From an uncultured bacterium (GTDB lineage: Bacteria; Bacteroidota; Bacteroidia; Bacteroidales; Bacteroidaceae): a stretch of DNA of 64,000 nucleotides. The notes below the pieces were generated by a model, which made no database searches, was not told the origin of the DNA, and was given only the letters and a program-made list of their open reading frames with translations. Location: NCBI GenBank assembly GCA_945829425.1, contig CALZUQ010000007.1, positions 2,077-66,076 on the forward strand, given 5' to 3'. Within the stretch, counting starts at the first letter, position 1. Each line of letters begins with the position of its first letter. This document shows positions 1,313-51,932 of the stretch, piece after piece. A program made the translations under genes and the position numbers.

Positions 1313-2932
1313 TCAGAACGGACAGGGTGAAGACAACGTCATCACCTCACTGGACTTCGGGTGGACGAACGTCATTCTCGCTGCATGAAGAAGCATGCGG
1401 CTGTCGGGAGTGCCATACAACTCATCGCCGACGATTGGTGCGTTGAGACCTTCTCTGTGCGCACAATGCACTCTGAGCTGGTGTGTCCTTCCTGTCTTAG
1501 GCTGAAGCTCCAGGCGTGCCTTTGTAATGTCTGCGTCAAGAACAGTGTAATGAGTAACAGCTTCTTTACCTGTTTCTTTGTCAACCTTTTGCCTGGGACG
1601 GTTGAGGTAGTCAGGAGAGAGGGGGAGGACGACATCTCCTTCATCACCCGTGCGGAGCATACTCGCCTCACACGGCTGCCTTACAACAGCATAATAAACC
1701 TTATGCACCTCTCGGAGAGCGAAGGCACGTTGCATCTCGCGTTGTGTCTCAACGTCTTTTGCGAACAACAGTATGCCGGAGGTCTGCATGTCCAGACGGT
1801 GGACACACAGCATGGCAGCTCCTCCCCGCTCCTCTGACAGTATCTCCTGAGCCGAGAGCCGTCGGCCTTTGCCTGGCACGGACAGCATTCCCGACGGTTT
1901 GTCGACAGCGACAAGCCACGGGTCTTCATAAACCATGGTTATCGTGCCACGTTCCTCTCCATCGAGTGGGTTCGCCTCAACGTCCATGCCCTGAAGCATG
2001 AAGTCGAGGATGGGGCGGCACTTGCCCTGGCAGGCAGGATAGCACTCACCGTGATGGCGTATCTCGCCAGCAGGAGAACGTCCCCACCAGAACTCTGCCA
2101 TGCAGAGGGGCTCATAGCCGTGAAGAAAGGCATACTGCAGGAGTTTCGGGGCGCAACACTCTCCTGCTCCTGAGGGAGGGATGACGAGAGGGGTGTCAGC
2201 GAAGATGTCGCAAAGGTCTTTCTCTTCTCCCTTTACGTTGCGCACAACGAAATGGCGGAAAAGCCATGTCTGCAGAGCGTCGGACTTCTCCTTACGTTCC
2301 TTGCGGAGCGATGCCAGCTTTGTGTTCCATTCCGCAACAGCATGACGAAGAGGAAGGAGGGTCTCCTCGTGACGACGCTTCAAACGTCTCATCTCGGCCT
2401 TCATAAACTGGCTCTCACGGATAAGGGAGGATGCGTCGTGGCACTGCTGACGAAGAGCATCACGGCGTTCTTTGGCTGCCTGCATCTGTTTGCGGTATTC
2501 CTCCTCCTCTCTTCGGCATGACTCTTCCGCTTCTGAAAGACGCAGACATGCTACGCGGCTCTGTGGCGATGTCTCCAAGGCAAGGATCGTACTGTTGATT
2601 TCCGATATCTCTCTTTCGTGGACGGCGAAATATCCGTCGGGCTGGAGGTAGTCGAAGACTGGGGGAACCCACCCCTCCCATTCCGACTGAGAGAGAATCT
2701 GTCCGGAGAAAGCCTTCAAATAGCCTATGGCTCCTGACACGTCTCTCACCACAAGCACTCCGAACATTTTACCCCGGCATATCTCGTCACGCCATTCGTC
2801 CTTGGAAGCTATCTCGTCCTTGACGTGCGCCATGGCAGACACAGCGAGAGGATGGGCGACATAATAGTATGGGCAGTTGAACCGCTCAGGAGGTAAAATG
2901 CCATTAGCAAGAGGAGTAAAACAAGTGTACAT
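1313..2932 (-). CDS. RluA-family pseudouridine synthase with long N-terminal/coiled-coil extension
   Basis: VDKPSG, catalytic HRLD, TGRTHQLRVH, GDELYG, LLHA motifs in the C-terminal ~210 aa. Confidence 0.93.
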   Translation of the reverse strand: MYTCFTPLANGILPPERFNCPYYYVAHPLAVSAMAHVKDEIASKDEWRDEICRGKMFGVLVVRDVSGAIGYLKAFSGQILSQSEWEGWVPPVFDYLQPDGYFAVHEREISEINSTILALETSPQSRVACLRLSEAEESCRREEEEYRKQMQAAKERRDALRQQCHDASSLIRESQFMKAEMRRLKRRHEETLLPLRHAVAEWNTKLASLRKERKEKSDALQTWLFRHFVVRNVKGEEKDLCDIFADTPLVIPPSGAGECCAPKLLQYAFLHGYEPLCMAEFWWGRSPAGEIRHHGECYPACQGKCRPILDFMLQGMDVEANPLDGEERGTITMVYEDPWLVAVDKPSGMLSVPGKGRRLSAQEILSEERGGAAMLCVHRLDMQTSGILLFAKDVETQREMQRAFALREVHKVYYAVVRQPCEASMLRTGDEGDVVLPLSPDYLNRPRQKVDKETGKEAVTHYTVLDADITKARLELQPKTGRTHQLRVHCAHREGLNAPIVGDELYGTPDSRMLLHAARMTFVHPKSSEVMTLSSPCPF

Positions 2933-2960
2933 AATACAAATATAACATTGGATTTCTATG

Positions 2961-2968
2961 CAAAGGTA
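2961..2968 (-). promoter_or_regulatory. -7 element for the RluA gene
   Basis: TACCTTTG on the minus strand ~30 nt upstream of the ATG. Confidence 0.6.
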
Positions 2969-3092
2969 ATAAATTCCTTAATAAAAACACAGTATTAAGT
3001 TAAAAAAAGAAATACAGATAGATTTAAATCAACAATATACTAAATAATCGAAAATATCTACGGATTTTCTTGCAAGTGTCTAATTTTGTGAG

Positions 3093-3100
3093 TAACTTTG
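3093..3100 (+). promoter_or_regulatory. -7 element driving the candidate sRNA
   Basis: TAACTTTG, with CTTG at 3069-3072 (20-nt spacer). Confidence 0.7.
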
Positions 3101-3105
3101 CATCG

Positions 3106-3170
3106 TGTTTTTCATAGTATTAGATTTAAGGTTAACAAAGATTGGGACAGAGCGCTGTCCCATTTTTATT
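3106..3170 (+). ncRNA. Candidate ~65-nt sRNA (5' end approximate)
   Basis: Promoter immediately upstream. Terminator TGGGACAG-agcg-CTGTCCCA-TTTTT at 3143-3167. Core 3108-3135 is the reverse complement of TTAACCTTAAATCTAATACT-ATG-AAAAA. Confidence 0.7.
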
Positions 3171-3545
3171 TTAAATCGCCAGAAAAGACATTGTTGCCCA
3201 CAAAACTTGCCGTTTTCATGGTTATAATACTATTTTAACTTAAGTCGGGTTATTTTTCCACGGGTAAAAGGTCTGGAAATTACTGGTTGGCGTTATGTCA
3301 TTACTGAAGGCTGGCAGACAGACATAGCCTTTATGGCAAAAAAACATACGGGATAATGGAATACAACAACAAGTTTTTTTTGCAAAAATGGGGAATACGA
3401 CAACTTGTTTTTTAAAAAGGAAAGAAAGACTCAAGAAAACGGATACCAAGACGATTATATATATATTAAGGTATAAGAAAAAACATGCGCCAATCGACAA
3501 TTAAGTTTTATTAACGTGACACAATCTTTGAAAAATAACAAAAAG

Positions 3546-3577
3546 TTTGCAGGGAGCAATAAAAATGCGTACTTTTG
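3546..3577 (+). promoter_or_regulatory. susC promoter (-33/-7)
   Basis: TTTG-N20-TACTTTTG, full Bacteroidetes consensus, ~50 nt before the ATG. Confidence 0.8.
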
Positions 3578-3628
3578 TATTCGGAAAAACATATTTTAAT
3601 TTATTAACTAACCTAAATCAGTAACAAC

Positions 3629-6600
3629 ATGAGTTTTACTTTATCAGTAAAAAGGTTGTCCATGCTTGTGGTTTTCAGCATGTTCTACCTCTTGTCGTTC
3701 GCCCAGAGCGCTATCTCGGGAACAGTAGAAGATGGCAATGGCGAACCAATTGTTGGTGCCAGCGTACTTATTAAAGGAACGTCAGCAGGTACCGTTACTG
3801 ACATCAATGGTGCTTTCACTATACAGAAAGTTTCACCAAATGATGTTATAGTAGTTTCTTCTATAGGCTTTACTTCAAAGGATGTGAAGGTGGGCAGACA
3901 GTCTACGCTCAACATCGTGCTGAAGGAAGACATGGCAAACCTTGAGGAGGTTGTCGTTATCGGTTACGGCACCATGAAACGTAAAGACCTCACAGGATCC
4001 GTGGCTTCTGTAACGGGAGAGGCATTGCAGAAGAACCCGGTATCTACAATAGCTGAGGCGCTCCAGGGACAGCTGCCTGGCGTAAACGTGGTGTCACAGG
4101 ACGGACGCCCGGGGGCTACAATGTCTATACGTGTACGAGGAGGAGGGTCTATCACACAGTCCAACGACCCGCTCTACATCGTTGACGGAATGCCGGTGTC
4201 ACGTATCGACGATATCCCTGCCGACAACATCGAAAGCATCGACGTGCTGAAAGATGCTGCTTCAACAGCTATTTACGGTGCGCGAGGAGCTAACGGCGTT
4301 ATACTCATCACTACGAAAGGTGCAAAGGAGGGTAAGGCGCTCGTGAAGTATAACATGTACTACCAGATGCGTCCGGCACCTGAGCAGCTCGACGTGCAGA
4401 ATGCTTATGACCATGTGCTGCACAACTGGGGATATGCCACAGCATACGGTGCTACGTATGGCGAAGGTGTGGCAAAATACTATGGCCTCGGATCAAAGTA
4501 CGGCAACCACATAAACGAATACAAGAATGTGGGCGTACACAACTGGATGGACGACGTGCTCTCAAGCGGAAGCATGTGGAATAACGATCTGTCGGTAAGC
4601 GGTGGTACAAACCGTACGAAGTATTACGCTTCGGTAAACTACTCGAACATTGACGGAAGCCTCATCAACTCCGGATTCCGCCGTTGGAACATCAACTTCA
4701 AGCTCCAGCAGGAAATAACAAACAGCCTCACACTTGACCTCAACGCACGCTACACAGAAATGCGCTTCGAGGGAAACCGCTACGACTTCGCGACAGGAGC
4801 ATACCGTTACAAGCCTATCGACAAGCCGTTCGGTTCGGACGACCCTACAGACCTCGGAATGGGTTCGGCATCTGCAGAAGATGCTTACAACCCGGTAAAG
4901 AGTGTGGAGGACGTGAACAACATTCGTGACGTATACCGACTCAACCTCAACACGGGACTCACATGGAAGGTGATAAAAGGACTTACGGCAAAGACGGAAC
5001 TCCTCGCGGCACGCAACTGGTCGAAAACGCAGACATACGACGGAGGACACACAAACGGTGCAGGATACAGCACGGCTAAACTGACAAACGCTGACGGATA
5101 TAACCTTCGTTGGGACACAACACTCAGCTATGAGGTACAGGGACTCGGAGAGAACCACAGCCTCAACATCATGGCTGGTAACGAGGTGCTCTCAAGCAAG
5201 AGTAACAACGCCGTGATTTACGGCGTGGGATATCCTACAGAGTGGAACATGGAACAGGTATTCGGAAACATCAACTTCTCGGACAAGGACAAGGCGATGG
5301 ATTATGTTTCTACAAACATTGGAGTACCGTCACATACCGTATCATGGTTCGGACGAGTGAACTACACACTCCTTGGACGTTACCTCTTCACGGCTACAAT
5401 GCGTGCCGACGGTTCTTCTAAGTTCAGTAAGGGAAACCAGTGGGGATATTTCCCGGCTGCGGCAGTAGCATGGCGTCTCTCTGACGAACCGTTCATGGAG
5501 GGGACACGCTCTTGGCTCGACAACTTGAAGCTACGTCTCTCGTTCGGTACATCAGGTAACGATGGCATCGACGCTTCTTCGTTCTATACTACATGGACAT
5601 CAAGCACTGCGACAGTTAACGGACAGACCGTTACGACATACAAGCCAGGATCACTGCTCGGCAATCCCGACCTGACATGGGAGACAACAACGTCTCGCAA
5701 CATAGGTATAGACTACAGCTTCTTCAACGGAAAGCTCCACGGTGCTATCGACGCATACTGGAACTCAACCAAGGACTGTCTCATGCGTGTACCTATAGAC
5801 CCTACTGCCGGAGCAAGCTACTGGATGCAGAACGTGGCAAAGACATCTAACAAAGGTGTCGAGCTGACTCTCAACTACAACGCTGTACGAACAAAGGACT
5901 TCGACCTCAAAATCGGAGTGACATATAACTTCAACAAAAACAACGTCGACGACCTTACTGACGGAGTCCTCGCAAGCGCGCACACAGGTTGGGGTTCGAC
6001 ACTCAGCATTCCTTACTATGACTACATAGTAAAAGAAGGCGAGCCTGTAGGACTCATACAGGGCTTCAACAGCCTCGGATATTACACTGTCGATGACTTC
6101 AACGTTGTTGATGGCGTATGGACTCTGAAACCTGGAGTGCCTGACACAAAGGTTGGAAACTGGGCAGGAGGGTCGTACTACAACATACCTAAGGGACAGG
6201 TGGCATTCCCTGGTGTTGCGAAGTTTGAAAACACAGATGGCGACGGCACTGTGACAGCTGACGACGCTACAATAATCGGTCGTGCACAGGCTGAGCATAC
6301 TGGCGGATTCAACATCAACGCTCGTTACAAGAACATTGACTTCTCGGCAGGATTCACATACCAGATAGGCGGTAAGGTTTACAACGCTAACGTCATGCGA
6401 GACATGATGGGCGACAAGGACACATCGCTCGGCTACAACAGACTCGCAGAGGTCAGCGACTGCTGGCAGATGTTCAAGGTCGACGCTAACGGAGACCTCG
6501 CGGCAGTTACAGACCCTACAGAGCTCGCTGCTCTCAACACCGGTGCTAAATACGCACTCCCATACTCTGAGTATGGTATAGTAAGCTCGAAATTCGTGGA

Positions 6601-6868
6601 GGACGCTTCTTACCTCCGCCTGCAGACTCTCACCATAGGCTACACACTCCCAAAGTCTCTCATAAGAACAATTGGACTCTCTAACGTACGTGTGTACTTC
6701 ACTGGTGGTAACCTCTTCTGCCTAAAGGGATATTCTGGCATAGACCCAGACGTAAACGTCAGCCCTTCGGTAGACAGCAGCTATTCTGGCTTCCCAACAC
6801 CGAACTACGACTACCGCTCATATCCTAAGAGCCGTACATTCACCTTCGGTATCAATGTAGCATTCTAA
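3629..6868 (+). CDS. SusC/RagA TonB-dependent transporter
   Basis: Signal peptide, N-terminal CarboxypepD_reg-like domain, EEVVVIGYG, DAASTAIYGARGANGVILITTK, C-terminal ...FGINVAF. Confidence 0.98.
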   Translation: MSFTLSVKRLSMLVVFSMFYLLSFAQSAISGTVEDGNGEPIVGASVLIKGTSAGTVTDINGAFTIQKVSPNDVIVVSSIGFTSKDVKVGRQSTLNIVLKEDMANLEEVVVIGYGTMKRKDLTGSVASVTGEALQKNPVSTIAEALQGQLPGVNVVSQDGRPGATMSIRVRGGGSITQSNDPLYIVDGMPVSRIDDIPADNIESIDVLKDAASTAIYGARGANGVILITTKGAKEGKALVKYNMYYQMRPAPEQLDVQNAYDHVLHNWGYATAYGATYGEGVAKYYGLGSKYGNHINEYKNVGVHNWMDDVLSSGSMWNNDLSVSGGTNRTKYYASVNYSNIDGSLINSGFRRWNINFKLQQEITNSLTLDLNARYTEMRFEGNRYDFATGAYRYKPIDKPFGSDDPTDLGMGSASAEDAYNPVKSVEDVNNIRDVYRLNLNTGLTWKVIKGLTAKTELLAARNWSKTQTYDGGHTNGAGYSTAKLTNADGYNLRWDTTLSYEVQGLGENHSLNIMAGNEVLSSKSNNAVIYGVGYPTEWNMEQVFGNINFSDKDKAMDYVSTNIGVPSHTVSWFGRVNYTLLGRYLFTATMRADGSSKFSKGNQWGYFPAAAVAWRLSDEPFMEGTRSWLDNLKLRLSFGTSGNDGIDASSFYTTWTSSTATVNGQTVTTYKPGSLLGNPDLTWETTTSRNIGIDYSFFNGKLHGAIDAYWNSTKDCLMRVPIDPTAGASYWMQNVAKTSNKGVELTLNYNAVRTKDFDLKIGVTYNFNKNNVDDLTDGVLASAHTGWGSTLSIPYYDYIVKEGEPVGLIQGFNSLGYYTVDDFNVVDGVWTLKPGVPDTKVGNWAGGSYYNIPKGQVAFPGVAKFENTDGDGTVTADDATIIGRAQAEHTGGFNINARYKNIDFSAGFTYQIGGKVYNANVMRDMMGDKDTSLGYNRLAEVSDCWQMFKVDANGDLAAVTDPTELAALNTGAKYALPYSEYGIVSSKFVEDASYLRLQTLTIGYTLPKSLIRTIGLSNVRVYFTGGNLFCLKGYSGIDPDVNVSPSVDSSYSGFPTPNYDYRSYPKSRTFTFGINVAF

Positions 6869-6887
6869 ACAAAAAGGAGACAAAGAA

Positions 6888-8969
6888 ATGAAAAACAAGA
6901 TATTGAATATCGCACTCTACGGTGCGGCTATTATGGCCACAACATCATGTAGCGATTTCCTCGAGACAAAGTCGGTATCTACCGCCGACGGAGATTTCGT
7001 GTTCTCGAACATGGTAACCGCACGCGCTGCCATGGACGGCGCATACAGTGAGTGGCACGGGGCTGTCAGCGCACACATATACGGCGACGGACTCTTCTAC
7101 GCACTTGACATCGCCGGTTCAGACATAATGCGACATCCAGAGAAATACGCCAACCAGCTGCCACGACACCAACCCGAGACATTCTATGAGGGTGGAGCAG
7201 CAGCAGCGGCATATAACGCAGTGACTTACGGAAAAGAGGCTCCTAACAGTCCTTACGCAGTGCTGTTCTCTGTCGTGGGTAAGGCAAACGCCATAGCATC
7301 GGCTATAGAGAACATGGAAGGTTACGCTGAGATGATGGCTCAGGACAAACCGTCTAACCTCTCACAGCTCTACGGTGAGGCAATATGTCTACGAGCTACG
7401 GCTTACCGCGAACTGATAAAATACTACGGTGACGTGCCTTATCAGTCTGTCTTCGGTGTCGCTGCCGGAAATATTGTAGGACGTGACTCAATATATGATG
7501 TCCTCATTGACGACGTCAACAGAGTCGCTCCTCTTATGAACCCGGTAGGAAAAGACAACAAAAACTACTTCTCAAAGACATACGCATACGCTCTCGTAGG
7601 ACGTCTCGCTATAGAAGCGGCAGGATATCAGACACGACGTGGTGACATAAGCCGGACGGACGGAAAAGGAAACACACTGACCTTTGAGACGCTCGGAACA
7701 GAGAACAACGGTGCTTCCTATGGCCGACGTGCTGACTACCGCAGCCTATACGAAAAGGCAAAGACGGCATACAGCACATGTCTCGCAAACCTCGGAGCAT
7801 GTTCTTTCAGCGCAGATTACTGCACTCTCTTCGACGAGCTTCACGCAAGCGACAACGCATATACTACAGAGGCTATATATGAAGAGCCGTTCAGTCAGGG
7901 CGCATCAGGAAACGACCCACGATCTTACTCTCTCGGACGTCCTTCTTCAGGAGGTTCTTCAAAGGCATATCCTTGCAAGGCGTACGGACAGGGACGTATC
8001 AACCCGGCATTCTACTACGGTGTCTTCGACCCTAACGACGTACGTCGAGACATAAGCTGTGGAGTGACTGGCTCAACGGGAAAAGGCTTCGAGAAAGTGA
8101 TAAGCTTCACGCCGGGTTCAAAGGCTGACGCAGGTGGTATATCATGCAACAAGTTCGATGAGTGCCGACAGCCTACTGTATGGACTGCAAACCAGCGCCG
8201 ATCAGGTATCAACGCCGTGTACATGCGTCTCTCTGAGGTGTACCTCGGATATGCTGAGGCTTGTGCCATGACTGGCGACGAGGCTACTGCAAAGGAGTAT
8301 CTGGCGAAAATCAGAAACCGTGCATTCAACGGCAACGGAAATGTCGACGCATTCATAGCTGCCGAAGGCTCTCTCTTCAAGGCTATCATCGACGAGAGAG
8401 GATTTGAGTTTGCAGGAGAGGGTGACCGTCGCTGGACACTCATACGCTCAGGACTGCTCCCAGAGAAGATACGTGAGATAAAGGCTCTCACAGCAGACAT
8501 GATCAGCGGACTGAAAGCCAACGGATACTATACCTTCAAGAACGGCAACACCATCTCTAACGTCATATACACTAAAATGGTTGACCCGAAGAAGGAGTTC
8601 GGACTGAAGTCACGTCTCGTAGGAGCATGCACAGACAAGAGCAACCCTGTACTCTTCCCGGGATGGCGCGGACAGAAAGACTGGGAGGACGTAAGCGGAT
8701 TCACAGGATATGCTTCTAACAGCAAGTCAAACGTTGCTATCAAAGGGCTCTTCGAGAAGCTATCTGACGCAGAGATTGCTGCTCTGAAGGCTGACGGATA
8801 TGGCGAGCAGGCATGGGGCAGCGACATAGTAAAGAACGAGGCAGAGTATTCTGACTACCTCTTCTACGGTTATGACTATGTAAAAGCTCCTATCTATCTC
8901 TTCCCATTCTCTCCGAACGCTATAGCTACAGGTGGGTTCCTCAACGGATACGGCTTCGCCAACGAATAA
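6888..8969 (+). CDS. SusD/RagB lipoprotein
   Basis: Lipobox ATTSC-SDFL; GEAICLRATAYRELIKYYGDVP; IIDERGFEFAGEGDRRWTLIR; 19 nt after susC. Confidence 0.96.
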   Translation: MKNKILNIALYGAAIMATTSCSDFLETKSVSTADGDFVFSNMVTARAAMDGAYSEWHGAVSAHIYGDGLFYALDIAGSDIMRHPEKYANQLPRHQPETFYEGGAAAAAYNAVTYGKEAPNSPYAVLFSVVGKANAIASAIENMEGYAEMMAQDKPSNLSQLYGEAICLRATAYRELIKYYGDVPYQSVFGVAAGNIVGRDSIYDVLIDDVNRVAPLMNPVGKDNKNYFSKTYAYALVGRLAIEAAGYQTRRGDISRTDGKGNTLTFETLGTENNGASYGRRADYRSLYEKAKTAYSTCLANLGACSFSADYCTLFDELHASDNAYTTEAIYEEPFSQGASGNDPRSYSLGRPSSGGSSKAYPCKAYGQGRINPAFYYGVFDPNDVRRDISCGVTGSTGKGFEKVISFTPGSKADAGGISCNKFDECRQPTVWTANQRRSGINAVYMRLSEVYLGYAEACAMTGDEATAKEYLAKIRNRAFNGNGNVDAFIAAEGSLFKAIIDERGFEFAGEGDRRWTLIRSGLLPEKIREIKALTADMISGLKANGYYTFKNGNTISNVIYTKMVDPKKEFGLKSRLVGACTDKSNPVLFPGWRGQKDWEDVSGFTGYASNSKSNVAIKGLFEKLSDAEIAALKADGYGEQAWGSDIVKNEAEYSDYLFYGYDYVKAPIYLFPFSPNAIATGGFLNGYGFANE

Positions 8970-11818: not shown

Positions 11819-12913
11819 ATGAAAAAGACATTAATGACATTGGCGCTTGCCTTCGCAACACTTGCCGGCAATGCGCAGAGTTCTATCACGATGAAATTCT
11901 CCGACATTACTGTCGACACTGTTTTCGTGGAGAACATTACGAAGAAGTCAGTAGACACCTTGCTGGTCAAGAATGGAGAAACGACCTATTCATGTGATGC
12001 CAAAGACGAGGTTCAGGCCGTGGAGGTCGCTTTTGTGGTTGACGGCGAAGTGCGACAGCTCATGACATACGCTGTACCAGAAGAGAATGGCATAATTACT
12101 GCCAGCAGGAAGCAACTTACTTACAGCGGCTCGAAGTTCTTTGACGAGTATGACAAATACAAGTCTATTGTTATTGACGACCAGACGAGAATTCAAGAAC
12201 TGCTATCTGAATTCAAGAAGAAAACTCTGGCGGGAGAGAACAGAGACTCTCTCGTAAAAGTAATAAGACCGCAGTTTTTTGAAGCTTCAAAGAGAATGGA
12301 GGACAAAAACATCGCATATATCAAGGCAAATCCTAACAGCAACGTCTCCGTTGTCCTCATTTCATACCTTCAAGAAAACCAAGAAGAGCTGCTGTCGCTC
12401 ATCTCCGACGAGGTTAAGAAAGGTCCTTTCAAGAACGTCGTGGCAGAGATAGAAGCCTCCATAGCCGAGAACAAGGCACTCGAAGAAGCCAAGAAAAACC
12501 TTGCAGAAGGTAAGCCGGCACCGGAATTTACGTTGAAGGACATCAACGGCAAGGACCTTGCACTCTCCTCGCTGAGAGGAAAATACGTCGTCCTTGACTT
12601 CTGGGGATCATGGTGCGGATGGTGTATAAAGGGTATACCGGAAATGAAGAAATACTACGAGAAATACTCCGGCAAAATGGAAATTCTCGGAATAGACTGC
12701 AACGATACGGAAGAGAAATGGCGTAATGCCGTGGCAAAGCATGCCATTCCATGGAAACACGTTTATTGTCCACGGAAGTCTGACGTGACAGCACGCTATG
12801 CCATAGAGGGCTATCCGACTAAGATTATCATTGACCCAGAGGGAAAAATCGTGAAGACTGTAGTGGGTGAAGACCCTGCCTTCTATACTTTCCTCGACGA
12901 ACTGTTCAAATGA
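11819..12913 (+). CDS. TlpA-family thiol-disulfide oxidoreductase (periplasmic)
   Basis: Signal peptide; PAPEFTLKD...LDFWGSWCGWC thioredoxin CxxC; YAIEGYPT. Confidence 0.93.
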   Translation: MKKTLMTLALAFATLAGNAQSSITMKFSDITVDTVFVENITKKSVDTLLVKNGETTYSCDAKDEVQAVEVAFVVDGEVRQLMTYAVPEENGIITASRKQLTYSGSKFFDEYDKYKSIVIDDQTRIQELLSEFKKKTLAGENRDSLVKVIRPQFFEASKRMEDKNIAYIKANPNSNVSVVLISYLQENQEELLSLISDEVKKGPFKNVVAEIEASIAENKALEEAKKNLAEGKPAPEFTLKDINGKDLALSSLRGKYVVLDFWGSWCGWCIKGIPEMKKYYEKYSGKMEILGIDCNDTEEKWRNAVAKHAIPWKHVYCPRKSDVTARYAIEGYPTKIIIDPEGKIVKTVVGEDPAFYTFLDELFK

Positions 12914-13024
12914 CATGCAGAATAACGTTGTCCCTCCCCACCCAAAACCGACAATGGGCGTCGGGGGGACTTTCTTAAGGAGGAGAAGCTCCATAGCCTC
13001 CTAAATATTAACCCTATACACACT

Positions 13025-15154
13025 ATGAGAAACAAGTCATTTTTTTTACTCTGTTTTTTTCTGTTGTTTCCAAGCATTCCCGCTTTGTCGCAGGGAAAGA
13101 AGAAGACCAATTATAAGGCTGTCCTTAAGAGACAGGACGAGGCGTTCTTCTCCACGCCAGAGGCAAGGAGGGTCGGCGACCAGCTGATACTCTTCCAAAG
13201 AGTTACAGGAGGATGGCCGAAGAACACCGACATGGTCACTCCGCTGACCTACGAGCAGCGCAAAGCGGTAGAAGCAGAAAAAGGTCGTACCGACGACTCC
13301 ACAGTAGACAACAACGCTACAACACGGCAGATGCTTTTCCTCGCCAACCTCTACCGTATCACGAAAGAGCCAAGATACCGTGAGGCAGTGAGAAAAGGCA
13401 TGGAATACCTGCTCTCCGGACAATATGACAACGGAGGATGGCCGCAGTTCTGGCCAGACCCTAAGGGCTATCAGATACACATAACGTACAACGATGGCAA
13501 CATGGCGAACATCATGAAACTCTTTATGGCAGCCACGTCTGGGAAGAAACCTTTCGACAACGACATTGCCGACGAAGCATTGCGCAGTAGGATGGAGAAA
13601 GCTGTTGAACGTGGCATAGAGTGCATTCTGAAGACTCAGATACGCGTAAAGGGAAAACCTACGGTATGGTGTCAGCAGCATGACCGGGAGACCTTCGAAC
13701 CTGCCGGTGCACGTGCCTTTGAACTCCCCTCATACTGCTCGGCAGAGAGTGAGGGACTCGTAGAGGTGCTCATGGATGTCGCAAATCCCGACAAACGTAT
13801 CATTGAGGCGGTAAACGGTGCCATGGCTTGGTTTGACAAGTACAAGATCACGGGATATAAGGTTGTGAGGACAGGAAGGTTTGACGACCTCGCAGGACGC
13901 GACACACGTTTAGTTGCGGACAAAGCCGCCAAGCCGTTATGGGGACGTTTCTACGATCTGGAATACTGTGAGCCGTTTCTTGTAGACCGCGACGGAATTC
14001 CACGCCGCCGTTTAGAGGATATCGGCTTTGAACGCCGCTCCGGCTACGCATGGTACTGCGACTCTCCTGCCATGCTTTATGAACGTTACGACAGCTGGGC
14101 AGACAAATTCTGTCCGAAGAAAAAGGTAAAGATAAGCCTTGAGAGCAAGGGCGGCAATGAGAACGGCACCATGCAGCTCTTCCGCCGTCCCGTGCATAAG
14201 GACAAAGACTATGACGCTGTGGTAAAGTCTGGCATGAGCATTCAGGAGGCTATAGAGAAAGCACCACGGCAATCCAAGCAGCCATATACCATATTCATAC
14301 ATAAAGGACTGTATGAGGAGAAGGTCGTCATAGACCGTAAGAACATTGTGCTCGTCGGCGAAGACCGCGACAGCACTATCATACGCATGGCTGAAACGGA
14401 GAAATACCGCAAGACAGCAGAATATAAAGGACGGAAGATACACCATGGAGTTGTGGTGCTGACACCCGAAGCCGACAGCTGTGTCATCAGCGGACTTACG
14501 ATATACAACAACTACGGCACGGCTGTGGAACCTGGCAATACCACCCACCAAATGGCGGTCTACGGCGAGGCTAACCACACCATAATAATAAACAGCCGGA
14601 TATGGGCTGACGGCAACGACGCACTGAGCCTTTGGTCGAAGGTCAGAGACGGCAATGAGATGTATTACCACGCCGACCTCGACCTGAGATGTAAGGGCGT
14701 AGACTTCCTCTGTCCGAGGGGTTGGTGCTATGCCACGCGATGCACGTTCTACGGCGATGGTCACGCTATGATATGGCATGACGGAAGAGGTGACAAGACA
14801 AAGAAGCTCGTCATTACAAACTCAACCTTCGACGCAGAGTCGCCGACAGCATTAGGACGATGGCATCACGACTCGATGTTCTATCTGATAAACTGTCGTT
14901 TGTCCAAGAACGTCCTTGACTCAAACATACACTACGCTTATTCTGACAAGGTACTCGACCCTTGTCCGTGGGGCGAGAGAGTGTATTACCTCTTATGTAC
15001 AAGGGAAGGTGGACACACGGGATGGCTTAACGACAACATAGACGAGAGTGCGGAACCGGGGTCTTACCACAGCACTACTGCAACATGGACATACGGCGGC
15101 AGGTGGGACCCGGAGAAACATATCCGCGACCTATGGAAATATCTTGCATATTGA
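13025..15154 (+). CDS. Pectate lyase (PL10) - pectin methylesterase (CE8-like) fusion
   Basis: PL10 motifs GGWPKN, STVDNNAT, NGGWPQFWP, HITYNDG, ARAFELP; C-terminal SIQEAIEKAP..IHKGLYEEKV, GNDAL, VDF, LGRW. Confidence 0.9.
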   Translation: MRNKSFFLLCFFLLFPSIPALSQGKKKTNYKAVLKRQDEAFFSTPEARRVGDQLILFQRVTGGWPKNTDMVTPLTYEQRKAVEAEKGRTDDSTVDNNATTRQMLFLANLYRITKEPRYREAVRKGMEYLLSGQYDNGGWPQFWPDPKGYQIHITYNDGNMANIMKLFMAATSGKKPFDNDIADEALRSRMEKAVERGIECILKTQIRVKGKPTVWCQQHDRETFEPAGARAFELPSYCSAESEGLVEVLMDVANPDKRIIEAVNGAMAWFDKYKITGYKVVRTGRFDDLAGRDTRLVADKAAKPLWGRFYDLEYCEPFLVDRDGIPRRRLEDIGFERRSGYAWYCDSPAMLYERYDSWADKFCPKKKVKISLESKGGNENGTMQLFRRPVHKDKDYDAVVKSGMSIQEAIEKAPRQSKQPYTIFIHKGLYEEKVVIDRKNIVLVGEDRDSTIIRMAETEKYRKTAEYKGRKIHHGVVVLTPEADSCVISGLTIYNNYGTAVEPGNTTHQMAVYGEANHTIIINSRIWADGNDALSLWSKVRDGNEMYYHADLDLRCKGVDFLCPRGWCYATRCTFYGDGHAMIWHDGRGDKTKKLVITNSTFDAESPTALGRWHHDSMFYLINCRLSKNVLDSNIHYAYSDKVLDPCPWGERVYYLLCTREGGHTGWLNDNIDESAEPGSYHSTTATWTYGGRWDPEKHIRDLWKYLAY

Positions 15155-51600: not shown

Positions 51601-51932
51601 ACAACGACAGTCTCTTCAAGCATCTGCGCATCAGCCTTGAGGACAACGTTAACCTGCGTGCGTCCTGCAAGTTTTACATCCTGAGGCTGATAGCCTACAA
51701 ACGAGATACTCAGCGTAGCATTGGCGTTCTTCACCTTCAGCTGGAACTTTCCGTCCATGTCTGTGGCGACACCGTTCTGAGTACCTTTTTCACGCACTGT
51801 AGCGCCGAGGACAGGCCCGAACTCATCACTGACAGTACCGGTAACCTGCACCTGTGCCATCATTGATGCCGAGACGAGCATGAACAGCGCGAGTAACGCA
51901 AACTTAATGCTGAAACATTTTTCAGTCTTCAT
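48687..51932 (-). CDS. SusC/RagA TonB-dependent transporter
   Basis: EETVVVGYG, KDASATAIYGAQGANGVVLITTK, C-terminal YP..SFTFGLNVSF. Confidence 0.98.
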   Translation of the reverse strand: MKTEKCFSIKFALLALFMLVSASMMAQVQVTGTVSDEFGPVLGATVREKGTQNGVATDMDGKFQLKVKNANATLSISFVGYQPQDVKLAGRTQVNVVLKADAQMLEETVVVGYGKMKRSDLAGASTTLDDKALKEGNITNIDQAFQGRVAGVTSFATSGAPGASQSIRVRGQATINAGAEPLYVVDGVIFQGSAQSGADLGLGDRLGNGSVSTVSPLATINPADIVSMEILKDASATAIYGAQGANGVVLITTKRGKSGEAKFTYDGSVTMSRQMKRLDMMNLREFATYYNTLVDQYEISQNSADPMYSDPSVLGIGTNWQDAIFRTAWQHNHQVSAQGGTDKVQYYVSGNFMNQEGTIIGSNFQRYGLRANLDAQLKSWLKLGLNASYSSTSDDLKLADSDEGIINYSLITPPDIQIYNIDGGYSSVSKEGFTNPNPIAMAMLNEILLDRQKLNGSIFAEVSFLKNLVWHAELGWDLSWSKGSTYEPKVDLGTWVRDNNNGRIQKNSSTYWTLKNYLTWNEKFGKHSITAMLGQECWESKYDYVSVSNTGLPSDAVHNPSLGSGKAEIGSGFGSSAMASFFTRETYNYDDRYLATYTFRYDGSSNFGPNKRWAPFHSVALAWRFNNEAFLKDVEWLSNGKLRLGWGQTGNASIGSYKWGSAMSTMDTALGMSYRPANMANLDIQWETQEQWNIGLDLGFFNGDLGFTVDWYKKMSKDMLMPLTLPSIMGTGGNGSSALAAPWGNYGDIENSGIELTVTAHPIHTKDFSWDTDINFSHNSNKVKSLAGGVALVGNGQWTDVVTRSAEGEQLYSFYGYKTDGVYTSFEDILNSPVNTLTKSNPIVTNADGTKSWSTNPGDYNPKTTTYVGDVKYVDVNGDGIIDENDKTKIGSPMPKWTFGWNNTFRYKNFDLTLFINGSIGNKIGNYMKMKLTHMNSAWQNQLADCGGHALLAPKNGTKSDNWVYDISNVIVSNPDALYPRASINDPNDNDAWSDRFIENGSYVRLKSITLGYTFDKKLISRLGLTNLRLTLNATNLLTITGYDGYDPEIGASTASKNVYGLDNGRYPAPTSFTFGLNVSF

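Follow-up and report, generated by a model that had tools for sequence, protein, structure and literature searches.

The locus described here raises two questions: what is encoded in the short stretch of DNA between a pseudouridine synthase gene and a susC-like gene, and on what would its product act? The locus sits on contig C7 of an assembly of 2.83 Mb (85 contigs, 92.7% complete, 48.5% G+C), within the 64-kb stretch of DNA that was analysed as a whole and that we call the window. Identical proteins and DNA were found in pig-gut metagenomes. Because the nearest homologues of the synthase are at most 49% identical and mostly labelled Prevotella or Prevotellaceae, the host is named to group level only, as an uncultured pig-gut bacterium of the Prevotella group. 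We consider it highly likely that positions 3105-3173 of the plus strand are a functional sRNA gene of the FopS family, with a promoter and a terminator of its own, whose RNA would pair in trans at the starts of glycan genes and lower their translation. The locus and its neighbours are laid out as follows.

1313-2932, minus strand: pseudouridine synthase gene (RluA type), upstream of FopS
3069-3072 and 3093-3100, plus strand: promoter, read from the sequence, with a -33 element CTTG (consensus TTTG) and a -7 element TAACTTTG of the sigma-ABfr type TAnnTTTG (Bacteroidota)
3105-3173, plus strand: FopS sRNA gene, about 65-69 nt, from the Rfam RF04319 match and metatranscriptome contigs
3105-3135, plus strand: single-stranded 5' seed region, R1/R1' (nt 1-21) with a conserved extension to nt 31
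3143-3172, plus strand: Rho-independent terminator (hairpin 3143-3162, U-tract 3163-3172), from a terminator scan and the fold
3629-8969, plus strand: susC-like gene (3629-6868) and susD-like gene (6888-8969), downstream of FopS, from Pfam

Pfam places CarboxypepD_reg and Plug domains in 3629-6868 and a SusD_RagB domain in 6888-8969. Since the next gene encodes a PriA-like helicase, the susCD pair is isolated and stands without a CAZyme operon.

When all Rfam families were scanned against the 64-kb window, the match of 3105-3173 (plus strand) to RF04319 (BTncRNA_FopS) was the only one to pass the cut-off of its own family; it spans positions 1-71 of the 71 in the model and scores 75.4 bits (E 4.8e-11) where the gathering score is 56 bits. 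Two other models align to the locus, namely GibS (RF04182), with 41.2 bits against a cut-off of 115 and a good alignment limited to the common 5' part, and BTnc231, with 31.5 bits against a cut-off of 80.4 and over the common 5' part only. Membership of either was rejected as the scores are far under the cut-offs, and a whole-genome search for GibS returned nothing besides the FopS 5'-part match, so that no GibS gene was found. Five features by which RF04319 membership is judged are present at the locus, namely a full-length score, the seed, a single terminator hairpin, a sigma-ABfr-type promoter sequence and multiple copies. A relation to FopS had been suggested in the original prediction of this gene, and it is borne out by a full-length match that passes the curated Rfam threshold. 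The element is thus a regular member of a published family and nothing new in kind, and any Rfam-based annotation would give it the label FopS. In Bacteroides thetaiotaomicron the family numbers 14 genes, each ~65-70 nt long and with a canonical sigma-ABfr promoter (Rüttiger et al., Nat Commun 2025, PMC11697453), and Bacteroides species have 12-15 copies. The published layout is a single-stranded 5' seed (R1', nt 1-21) followed by one terminator hairpin, and expression in B. thetaiotaomicron is induced by bile salts (PMC11697453).

The anatomy of the gene agrees with this layout. A 20-nt gap separates CTTG from the -7 box TAACTTTG, which ends 4 nt before G3105; a T-rich TTG stands at equal spacing in most of the 15 FopS loci that we aligned. 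The seed, GUGUUUUUCAUAGUAUUAGAU, contains the anti-start CAU, and over its 31 nt it is identical to the Rfam consensus except for an A in place of G at nt 12. Its core (3108-3135, TTTTTCATAGTATTAGATTTAAGGTTAA) has TTAACCTTAAATCTAATACTATGAAAAA as its exact reverse complement, an AT-rich stretch that can also be read as TTAACCTTAAATCTAATACT-ATG-AAAAA; the reverse-complement relation given in the original prediction was confirmed in this way. The terminator hairpin, TGGGACAG-AGCG-CTGTCCCA, has 8 pairs (5 of them G-C) and runs into TTTTTATTTT. For the RNA from 3104 to 3172 the folding energy is -16.3 kcal/mol (z = -3.0 relative to shuffled sequences), with the terminator as the sole strong helix and the seed mostly unpaired. 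The predicted coordinates of the promoter, start, hairpin and U-tract were all confirmed on the sequence.

Could the locus encode a small protein instead? We regard this as barely conceivable. The protein would come either from the 11-aa minus-strand ORF MKNTMQSYSQN or from the plus-strand frames 3098-3238 and 3105-3227, which open at TTG or GTG. These two frames, mechanical as they are, contradict the original statement that there is no ORF on the plus strand; the statement holds for ATG starts, as no ATG-started ORF lies on the plus strand at the FopS locus. In favour of a protein, there are mechanical ORFs on both strands, and the minus-strand ATG and its Lys/Asn codons are invariant in homologues. 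However, both plus-strand frames cross the terminator and are disrupted by a 2-nt insertion and by indels among the paralogues, and the minus-strand frame enters the promoter box and ends differently in each of the three paralogues (as above, MKNTLQN and MKNTLQNYIFFN). Furthermore, the authors who described the family excluded sORFs in FopS (PMC11697453).

The genome (92.7% complete) holds three FopS copies above the Rfam cut-off, the one described above and two others:

C40:12640-12710, plus strand: FopS copy 2, Rfam FopS cut-off passed
C1:25970-26044, minus strand: FopS copy 3, Rfam FopS cut-off passed

In all three, TAnnTTTG is followed by 4 nt and a G start. The suggestion that the gene might be one of a family in this genome was therefore correct, each of the three copies having its own promoter. 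Copy 2 is antisense to the last ~60 nt of an ORF for a 460-aa membrane protein (minus strand, 12647-14029), which lies at one end of a glycosyltransferase cluster; among the FopS loci of B. thetaiotaomicron there is a similar 'antisense' class. Beyond this genome, 23 of the 24 genomes sampled from the genus carry FopS, with one to five copies each (2-4 in many complete genomes), as do 141 of 151 good-quality genomes of the family, which represent 26 of 27 genera; at least one genome of another family also carries it. The published BLAST-based conservation lay within the Bacteroidaceae, with one occurrence in a phage (PMC11697453). Some relatives carry FopS genes in tandem, up to three in a row, with a spacing of ~260-285 nt (G148:C128:18300-18905, G063:C1:1594537-1594880, G090:C51:240-562 and G188:C2:207728-208080).

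Our conservation alignment comprises 15 FopS loci from 13 genomes. All 15 share TA..TTTG of the -7 box, and nt 1-31 do not vary except that nt 12 is A or G and that one type of paralogue has two extra nt (TA). The flanks of the 15 loci are unrelated, and the terminator stems vary with compensatory pairs in homologues, for example CG, GC, UA and AU at one pair. This pattern is the one expected for a trans-acting seed joined to a generic terminator, and since the seed is invariant across the genus while flanks and terminator have diverged, it indicates purifying selection on the seed.

These data bear on whether the gene is a passenger, moved about by phages or recombination and without a part of its own in regulation in the host. 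FopS-like DNA is held by three phage records, MT837453.1, PQ571285.1 (Bacteroides phage BX-TP2) and MT836368.1, at 84-93% identity over 54-79 nt that include the -7 box and the seed; none of the three records has an annotation at the match. These records and the phage noted in PMC11697453 would be expected for a passenger, as would the low copy number in the host (three) and the non-syntenic positions of the copies between species. On the other hand, no part of the gene (promoter, seed or terminator) is damaged, four independent gut samples show transcription of the locus (see below), the seed has been held constant in the genus, as noted above, and the family has been kept in the great majority of the 151 genomes. 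We therefore believe a passenger to be very unlikely.

Expression was assessed in four pig-gut metatranscriptomes, the records of which are Logan assembler contigs with no strand or size information. In all four runs the depth was 0 at 2800-3086, whereas it reached 84-750 at 3087-3127, 26-445 at 3128-3168 and 3-17 beyond; much of the signal over the conserved 5' part is contributed by FopS genes from other members of the community, and several contigs over this part extend upstream into unrelated sequence. Such libraries under-sample RNAs of 65 nt. Nevertheless, run X27 contains an exact contig for 3105-3138, and run X24 an exact contig for 3111-3167 that ends in the U-tract and has a depth of 31.5, against 6 for the susC contig. 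Contaminating DNA is an unlikely source of this pattern, since none of the runs shows coverage on the upstream side. From these strandless contigs we conclude that the FopS promoter is active in situ, with a start at or very near 3105. The RNA-seq check that accompanied the original prediction is answered in part by contigs that begin at the predicted start, one of them ending in the U-tract, although these carry neither strand nor size. The same prediction had named transcription of the minus strand alone as evidence against an sRNA; a minus-strand mRNA must continue upstream of 3087, where the depth is 0, which also counts against the minus-strand peptide discussed above.

Some read-through of the terminator occurs. 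Contigs with zero mismatches pass it in three runs and end at ~3450-3454, just before a TATATATA stretch, and in X24 the sequence of a strain variant extends without a break from 3138 past 4000, inside susC. The contigs over 3173-3454 (plus strand) may represent a longer FopS isoform or read-through into susC. In three of the four runs the coverage is 0 at 3456-3619.

On what, then, would FopS act? Pairing was scored with duplexfold (ViennaRNA), the accessibility term being left out, between FopS and the region from -35 to +20 of each start; 1943 ORFs of at least 100 aa were called by a home-made procedure, accounting for 85% of the genome, and 1938 start regions were scored. The nearest candidate is the adjacent susC, which has these features:

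3546-3577, plus strand: predicted promoter of susC itself, TTTG (3546-3549), N20 and TACTTTTG (3570-3577), read from the sequence
3608-3640, plus strand: putative site for pairing with FopS, across the susC leader and start, weak to moderate by duplexfold

FopS could act in cis on this neighbour, either as the front of a long susC leader, with attenuator-like read-through, or as a dedicated repressor of the adjacent gene. The two genes have the same orientation and lie 456 nt apart without overlap, contigs pass the terminator as described above, and the susC leader is predicted to pair with nt 1-31 of FopS at -14.5 kcal/mol, over a site that spans TAACCTAAATC and the AUG. With nt 12-33 the pairing amounts to -10.9 kcal/mol, rank 46 of 1938. 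However, susC has a predicted consensus promoter of its own, three of four runs have the coverage gap at 3456-3619, and with the published seed (nt 1-21) susC falls to rank 1761 of 1938. The original prediction had pointed to a match between the core and this leader, and TAACCTAAATC does lie at 3609-3619, 9 nt before the ATG at 3629; but 11 nt with a deletion is unremarkable, and susC is a mid-rank target (174 of 1938 with nt 1-33). It had also pointed to CTATGAA at a second susC start, which is present at 51932 (minus strand, gctATGAAg) but, at 7 nt, is trivial, and this start ranks 358 of 1938.

The position of FopS elsewhere also argues against action in cis. No susC lies beside FopS at any of 12 FopS loci in related genomes or at either of the other two copies in this genome, and no FopS was found within 5 kb of RluA-type synthase homologues at 80 loci in other species. 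It follows from the synthase loci that the position of FopS is not syntenic and that its adjacency to susC is lineage-specific. Given the low seed rank, the other copies and relatives that have no susC neighbour and the synthase loci that have no FopS, the adjacency is probably incidental. Action in cis as the main role is in our view improbable, though FopS may have a modest cis-proximal effect on susC.

The genome-wide scores favour action in trans. With nt 1-33 of FopS, 33 start regions were found at -18 kcal/mol or below and 14 at -20 kcal/mol or below, whereas 25 composition-preserving shuffles of FopS gave 7.1±3.6 (maximum 14) and 1.6 (maximum 6), respectively; reversed, complemented and reverse-complemented FopS sequences gave 0-3. 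Complementary sites at start codons are thus enriched in silico, as the original prediction had anticipated. A signal-peptide-like N-terminus is encoded by 20 of the 33 top targets, compared with 30% genome-wide (p 2.5e-4), and 16 of these 20 are carbohydrate-active, compared with four of 19 random signal-peptide proteins (Fisher p 3.6e-4); two of those four controls also score well with the FopS seed alone. As a group, the 14 susC-like genes pair slightly better than the rest (one-sided Mann-Whitney p 0.03 with nt 1-33, p 0.2 with nt 1-21). The following targets were predicted by duplexfold:

C10:55970, minus strand: GH106, top target
C17:27182, minus strand, and C23:5486, plus strand: pectate lyases, top targets
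C37:30310, minus strand: best-ranked susC, rank 8 of 1938
12990-13045, plus strand: start region of a pectate-lyase/pectinesterase gene (13025-15154), the best predicted FopS target in the window

The last of these genes (Pfam Pec_lyase and Pectinesterase) lies 4 kb past the susCD pair, and its start pairs at -19.5 kcal/mol with nt 1-33 and at -15.7 kcal/mol with seed nt 1-21, where it ranks 5 of 1938. By Pfam, the top 33 include two GH106 proteins, four pectate lyases (among them the 13025-15154 product, the one with a pectinesterase domain), a BT_1020-like protein, a DUF4861 protein, GH3, GH95, GH127, GH2 and GH28 enzymes and a Sde182-type protein, together with the altronate dehydratase UxaA, the mannonate dehydratase UxuA, a PfkB kinase, an aldo-keto reductase, an AraC regulator and an SSF symporter. 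They also include one susC with its neighbouring susD-like gene (C37) and a likely HTCS (BLASTP against the window susC, N-terminal sequence). Judged by the pectin PULs of B. thetaiotaomicron, we take this list to be a pectin, rhamnogalacturonan and hexuronate set. In silico, the best candidate targets are thus pectin and uronate genes, plus one susC/susD pair on another contig, and not mainly the neighbouring susC.

The k-mer ACCTTAAA is enriched 9.6-fold upstream of genes, but this was dropped as evidence of targeting because it is partly due to an unrelated repeat. This intergenic repeat occurs genome-wide in ~328 copies at two or fewer mismatches to AATAGAACCCACC and has ACCTTAAA in common with the complement of FopS nt 21-28. 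It often lies within AGATAAATCGGAAATCTGACAAAGCGAATTAATAGAACCCACC or the hairpin GGTGGGAATTAATAGAACCCACC, followed by TTAAA or TAAA, and for 76 copies the end lies 50 nt or less before a same-strand ORF start. Examples are C2:8578 (minus), C2:99093 (plus) and C1:82290 (plus), and copies lie upstream of the genes C4:45051 and C3:65771. The repeat may be a REP/MITE-like element, a leader element or a terminator.

Based on these observations, we propose the following mechanism. Transcription would begin at the sigma-ABfr-type promoter of the gene itself and stop at the intrinsic terminator, giving an RNA of ~65 nt with an unstructured 5' part of ~38 nt and then one hairpin. The 5' part would be an antisense image of a Bacteroidota start region (leader, AUG and Lys/Asn codons) and would pair in trans with the starts of mRNAs for glycan uptake and degradation. 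Pairing would hide the landing site of the ribosome and lower translation, as it does for FopS-10 on the susC BT_3983. The work on B. thetaiotaomicron showed that FopS-10 base-pairs at the translation starts of BT_3983 and other PUL-leading genes, glycoside hydrolase genes among them, and used compensatory mutations to demonstrate that it blocks in-vitro translation (PMC11697453). We observed family membership, anatomy, multiple copies, expression in situ and an excess of complementary starts in the host itself; repression in the host organism, and the identity of the mRNAs hit, would follow by analogy with this work. The trans-acting sRNA of the original prediction is supported by the Rfam match, the three copies, the excess at start regions and the published mechanism (PMC11697453).

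In B. thetaiotaomicron, the RRM-1 protein RbpB binds FopS and lifts repression (PMC11697453). Pfam RRM_1 was found neither in the host nor in 40 further genomes sampled from the genus; one of nine additional ones has it, and overall 49 of the 50 other genus members sampled lack it. Since the host has no RbpB-type RRM-1 protein, the B. thetaiotaomicron circuit, with RbpB as antagonist, is not transferable to it unchanged. In the family sample, 38 of the 151 genomes encode RRM_1; these belong to 12 of 27 genera and include one of the ten genus members in the sample. FopS is kept in 103 of the 113 genomes that lack RRM-1. Relief of FopS repression by RbpB is therefore not the general mode of control. 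The mean number of FopS copies is 6.3 with RRM-1 and 2.5 without it (Mann-Whitney p 6e-13, phylogeny ignored), and as copy number tracks RRM-1 in this way, there is a hint that FopS dosage and its protein antagonist evolve together. Nearly all genera with 7-9 FopS copies have RRM-1, those with 1-4 copies mostly lack it, and one genus (9 genomes) has neither FopS nor RRM-1. The absence of RRM-1 is already known for a related species, as the transcriptome paper on Segatella copri (S. copri) reported that it lacks the RNA-binding protein family of B. thetaiotaomicron (bioRxiv 10.1101/2024.04.05.588293). In the library searched, we found no paper on the combination of FopS present and RbpB absent.

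We suggest tentatively, and with more doubt than confidence, that FopS in the Prevotella group runs without the RbpB antagonist, which is missing in most, and has been retargeted, such that the host regulon is centred on pectin, rhamnogalacturonan and hexuronate and not on the PULs for host N-glycans. The candidates under this same tentative reading would be the pectate lyases, GH106, GH28, GH95, GH127, GH2, the BT_1020-like and DUF4861 proteins, UxaA, UxuA, a KdgK-like kinase and the susC/susD pair with the HTCS. The coherence of the predicted pectin and uronate set leads to the hypothesis that fibre degradation is under post-transcriptional control in Prevotella, which is important in the guts of pigs and humans and is genetically hard to manipulate. 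Three computational leads go beyond the literature: the presence of FopS throughout a family that mostly lacks RbpB, its low copy number and the possible pectin/uronate regulon.

The closest known system is FopS of B. thetaiotaomicron. The host gene shares its first 31 nt (one purine off the consensus), its architecture, its length of 65-70 nt, its promoter and its presence in multiple copies, and in the host, too, the predicted targets are the starts of genes for secreted proteins of glycan use, with susC and glycoside hydrolases among them. In contrast, the host has three copies rather than 12-15, is an uncultured member of the Prevotella group with a 2.8-Mb genome and no RbpB or other RRM-1 protein, and has a predicted regulon of mainly pectin and uronate genes where that of B. 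thetaiotaomicron comprises host N-glycan PULs. GibS (RF04182; Ryan et al. 2020) has the first ~31 nt (the R1 seed) in common with the locus, the first 30 nt of which align perfectly to the model, but neither the R2 seed nor the second half of GibS is present at the locus, whose promoter is canonical instead of the PM2 motif. The DonS-type PUL sRNAs of Bacteroides fragilis (Cao et al. 2016) are likewise small RNAs beside a susC-led locus and proposed repressors. However, DonS is divergent or antisense to its own PUL and specific to it, whereas FopS here lies upstream of susC on the same strand and belongs to a dispersed family that is non-syntenic with susC elsewhere. The multicopy sRNAs OmrA/OmrB and Qrr of Proteobacteria, which block outer-membrane protein mRNAs in trans, are similar in that the paralogues keep a common 5' seed for pairing at the starts of envelope-protein mRNAs; these sRNAs have no sequence relation to FopS and depend on Hfq, whereas Bacteroidota have no Hfq and the genus of the host is also without RbpB.
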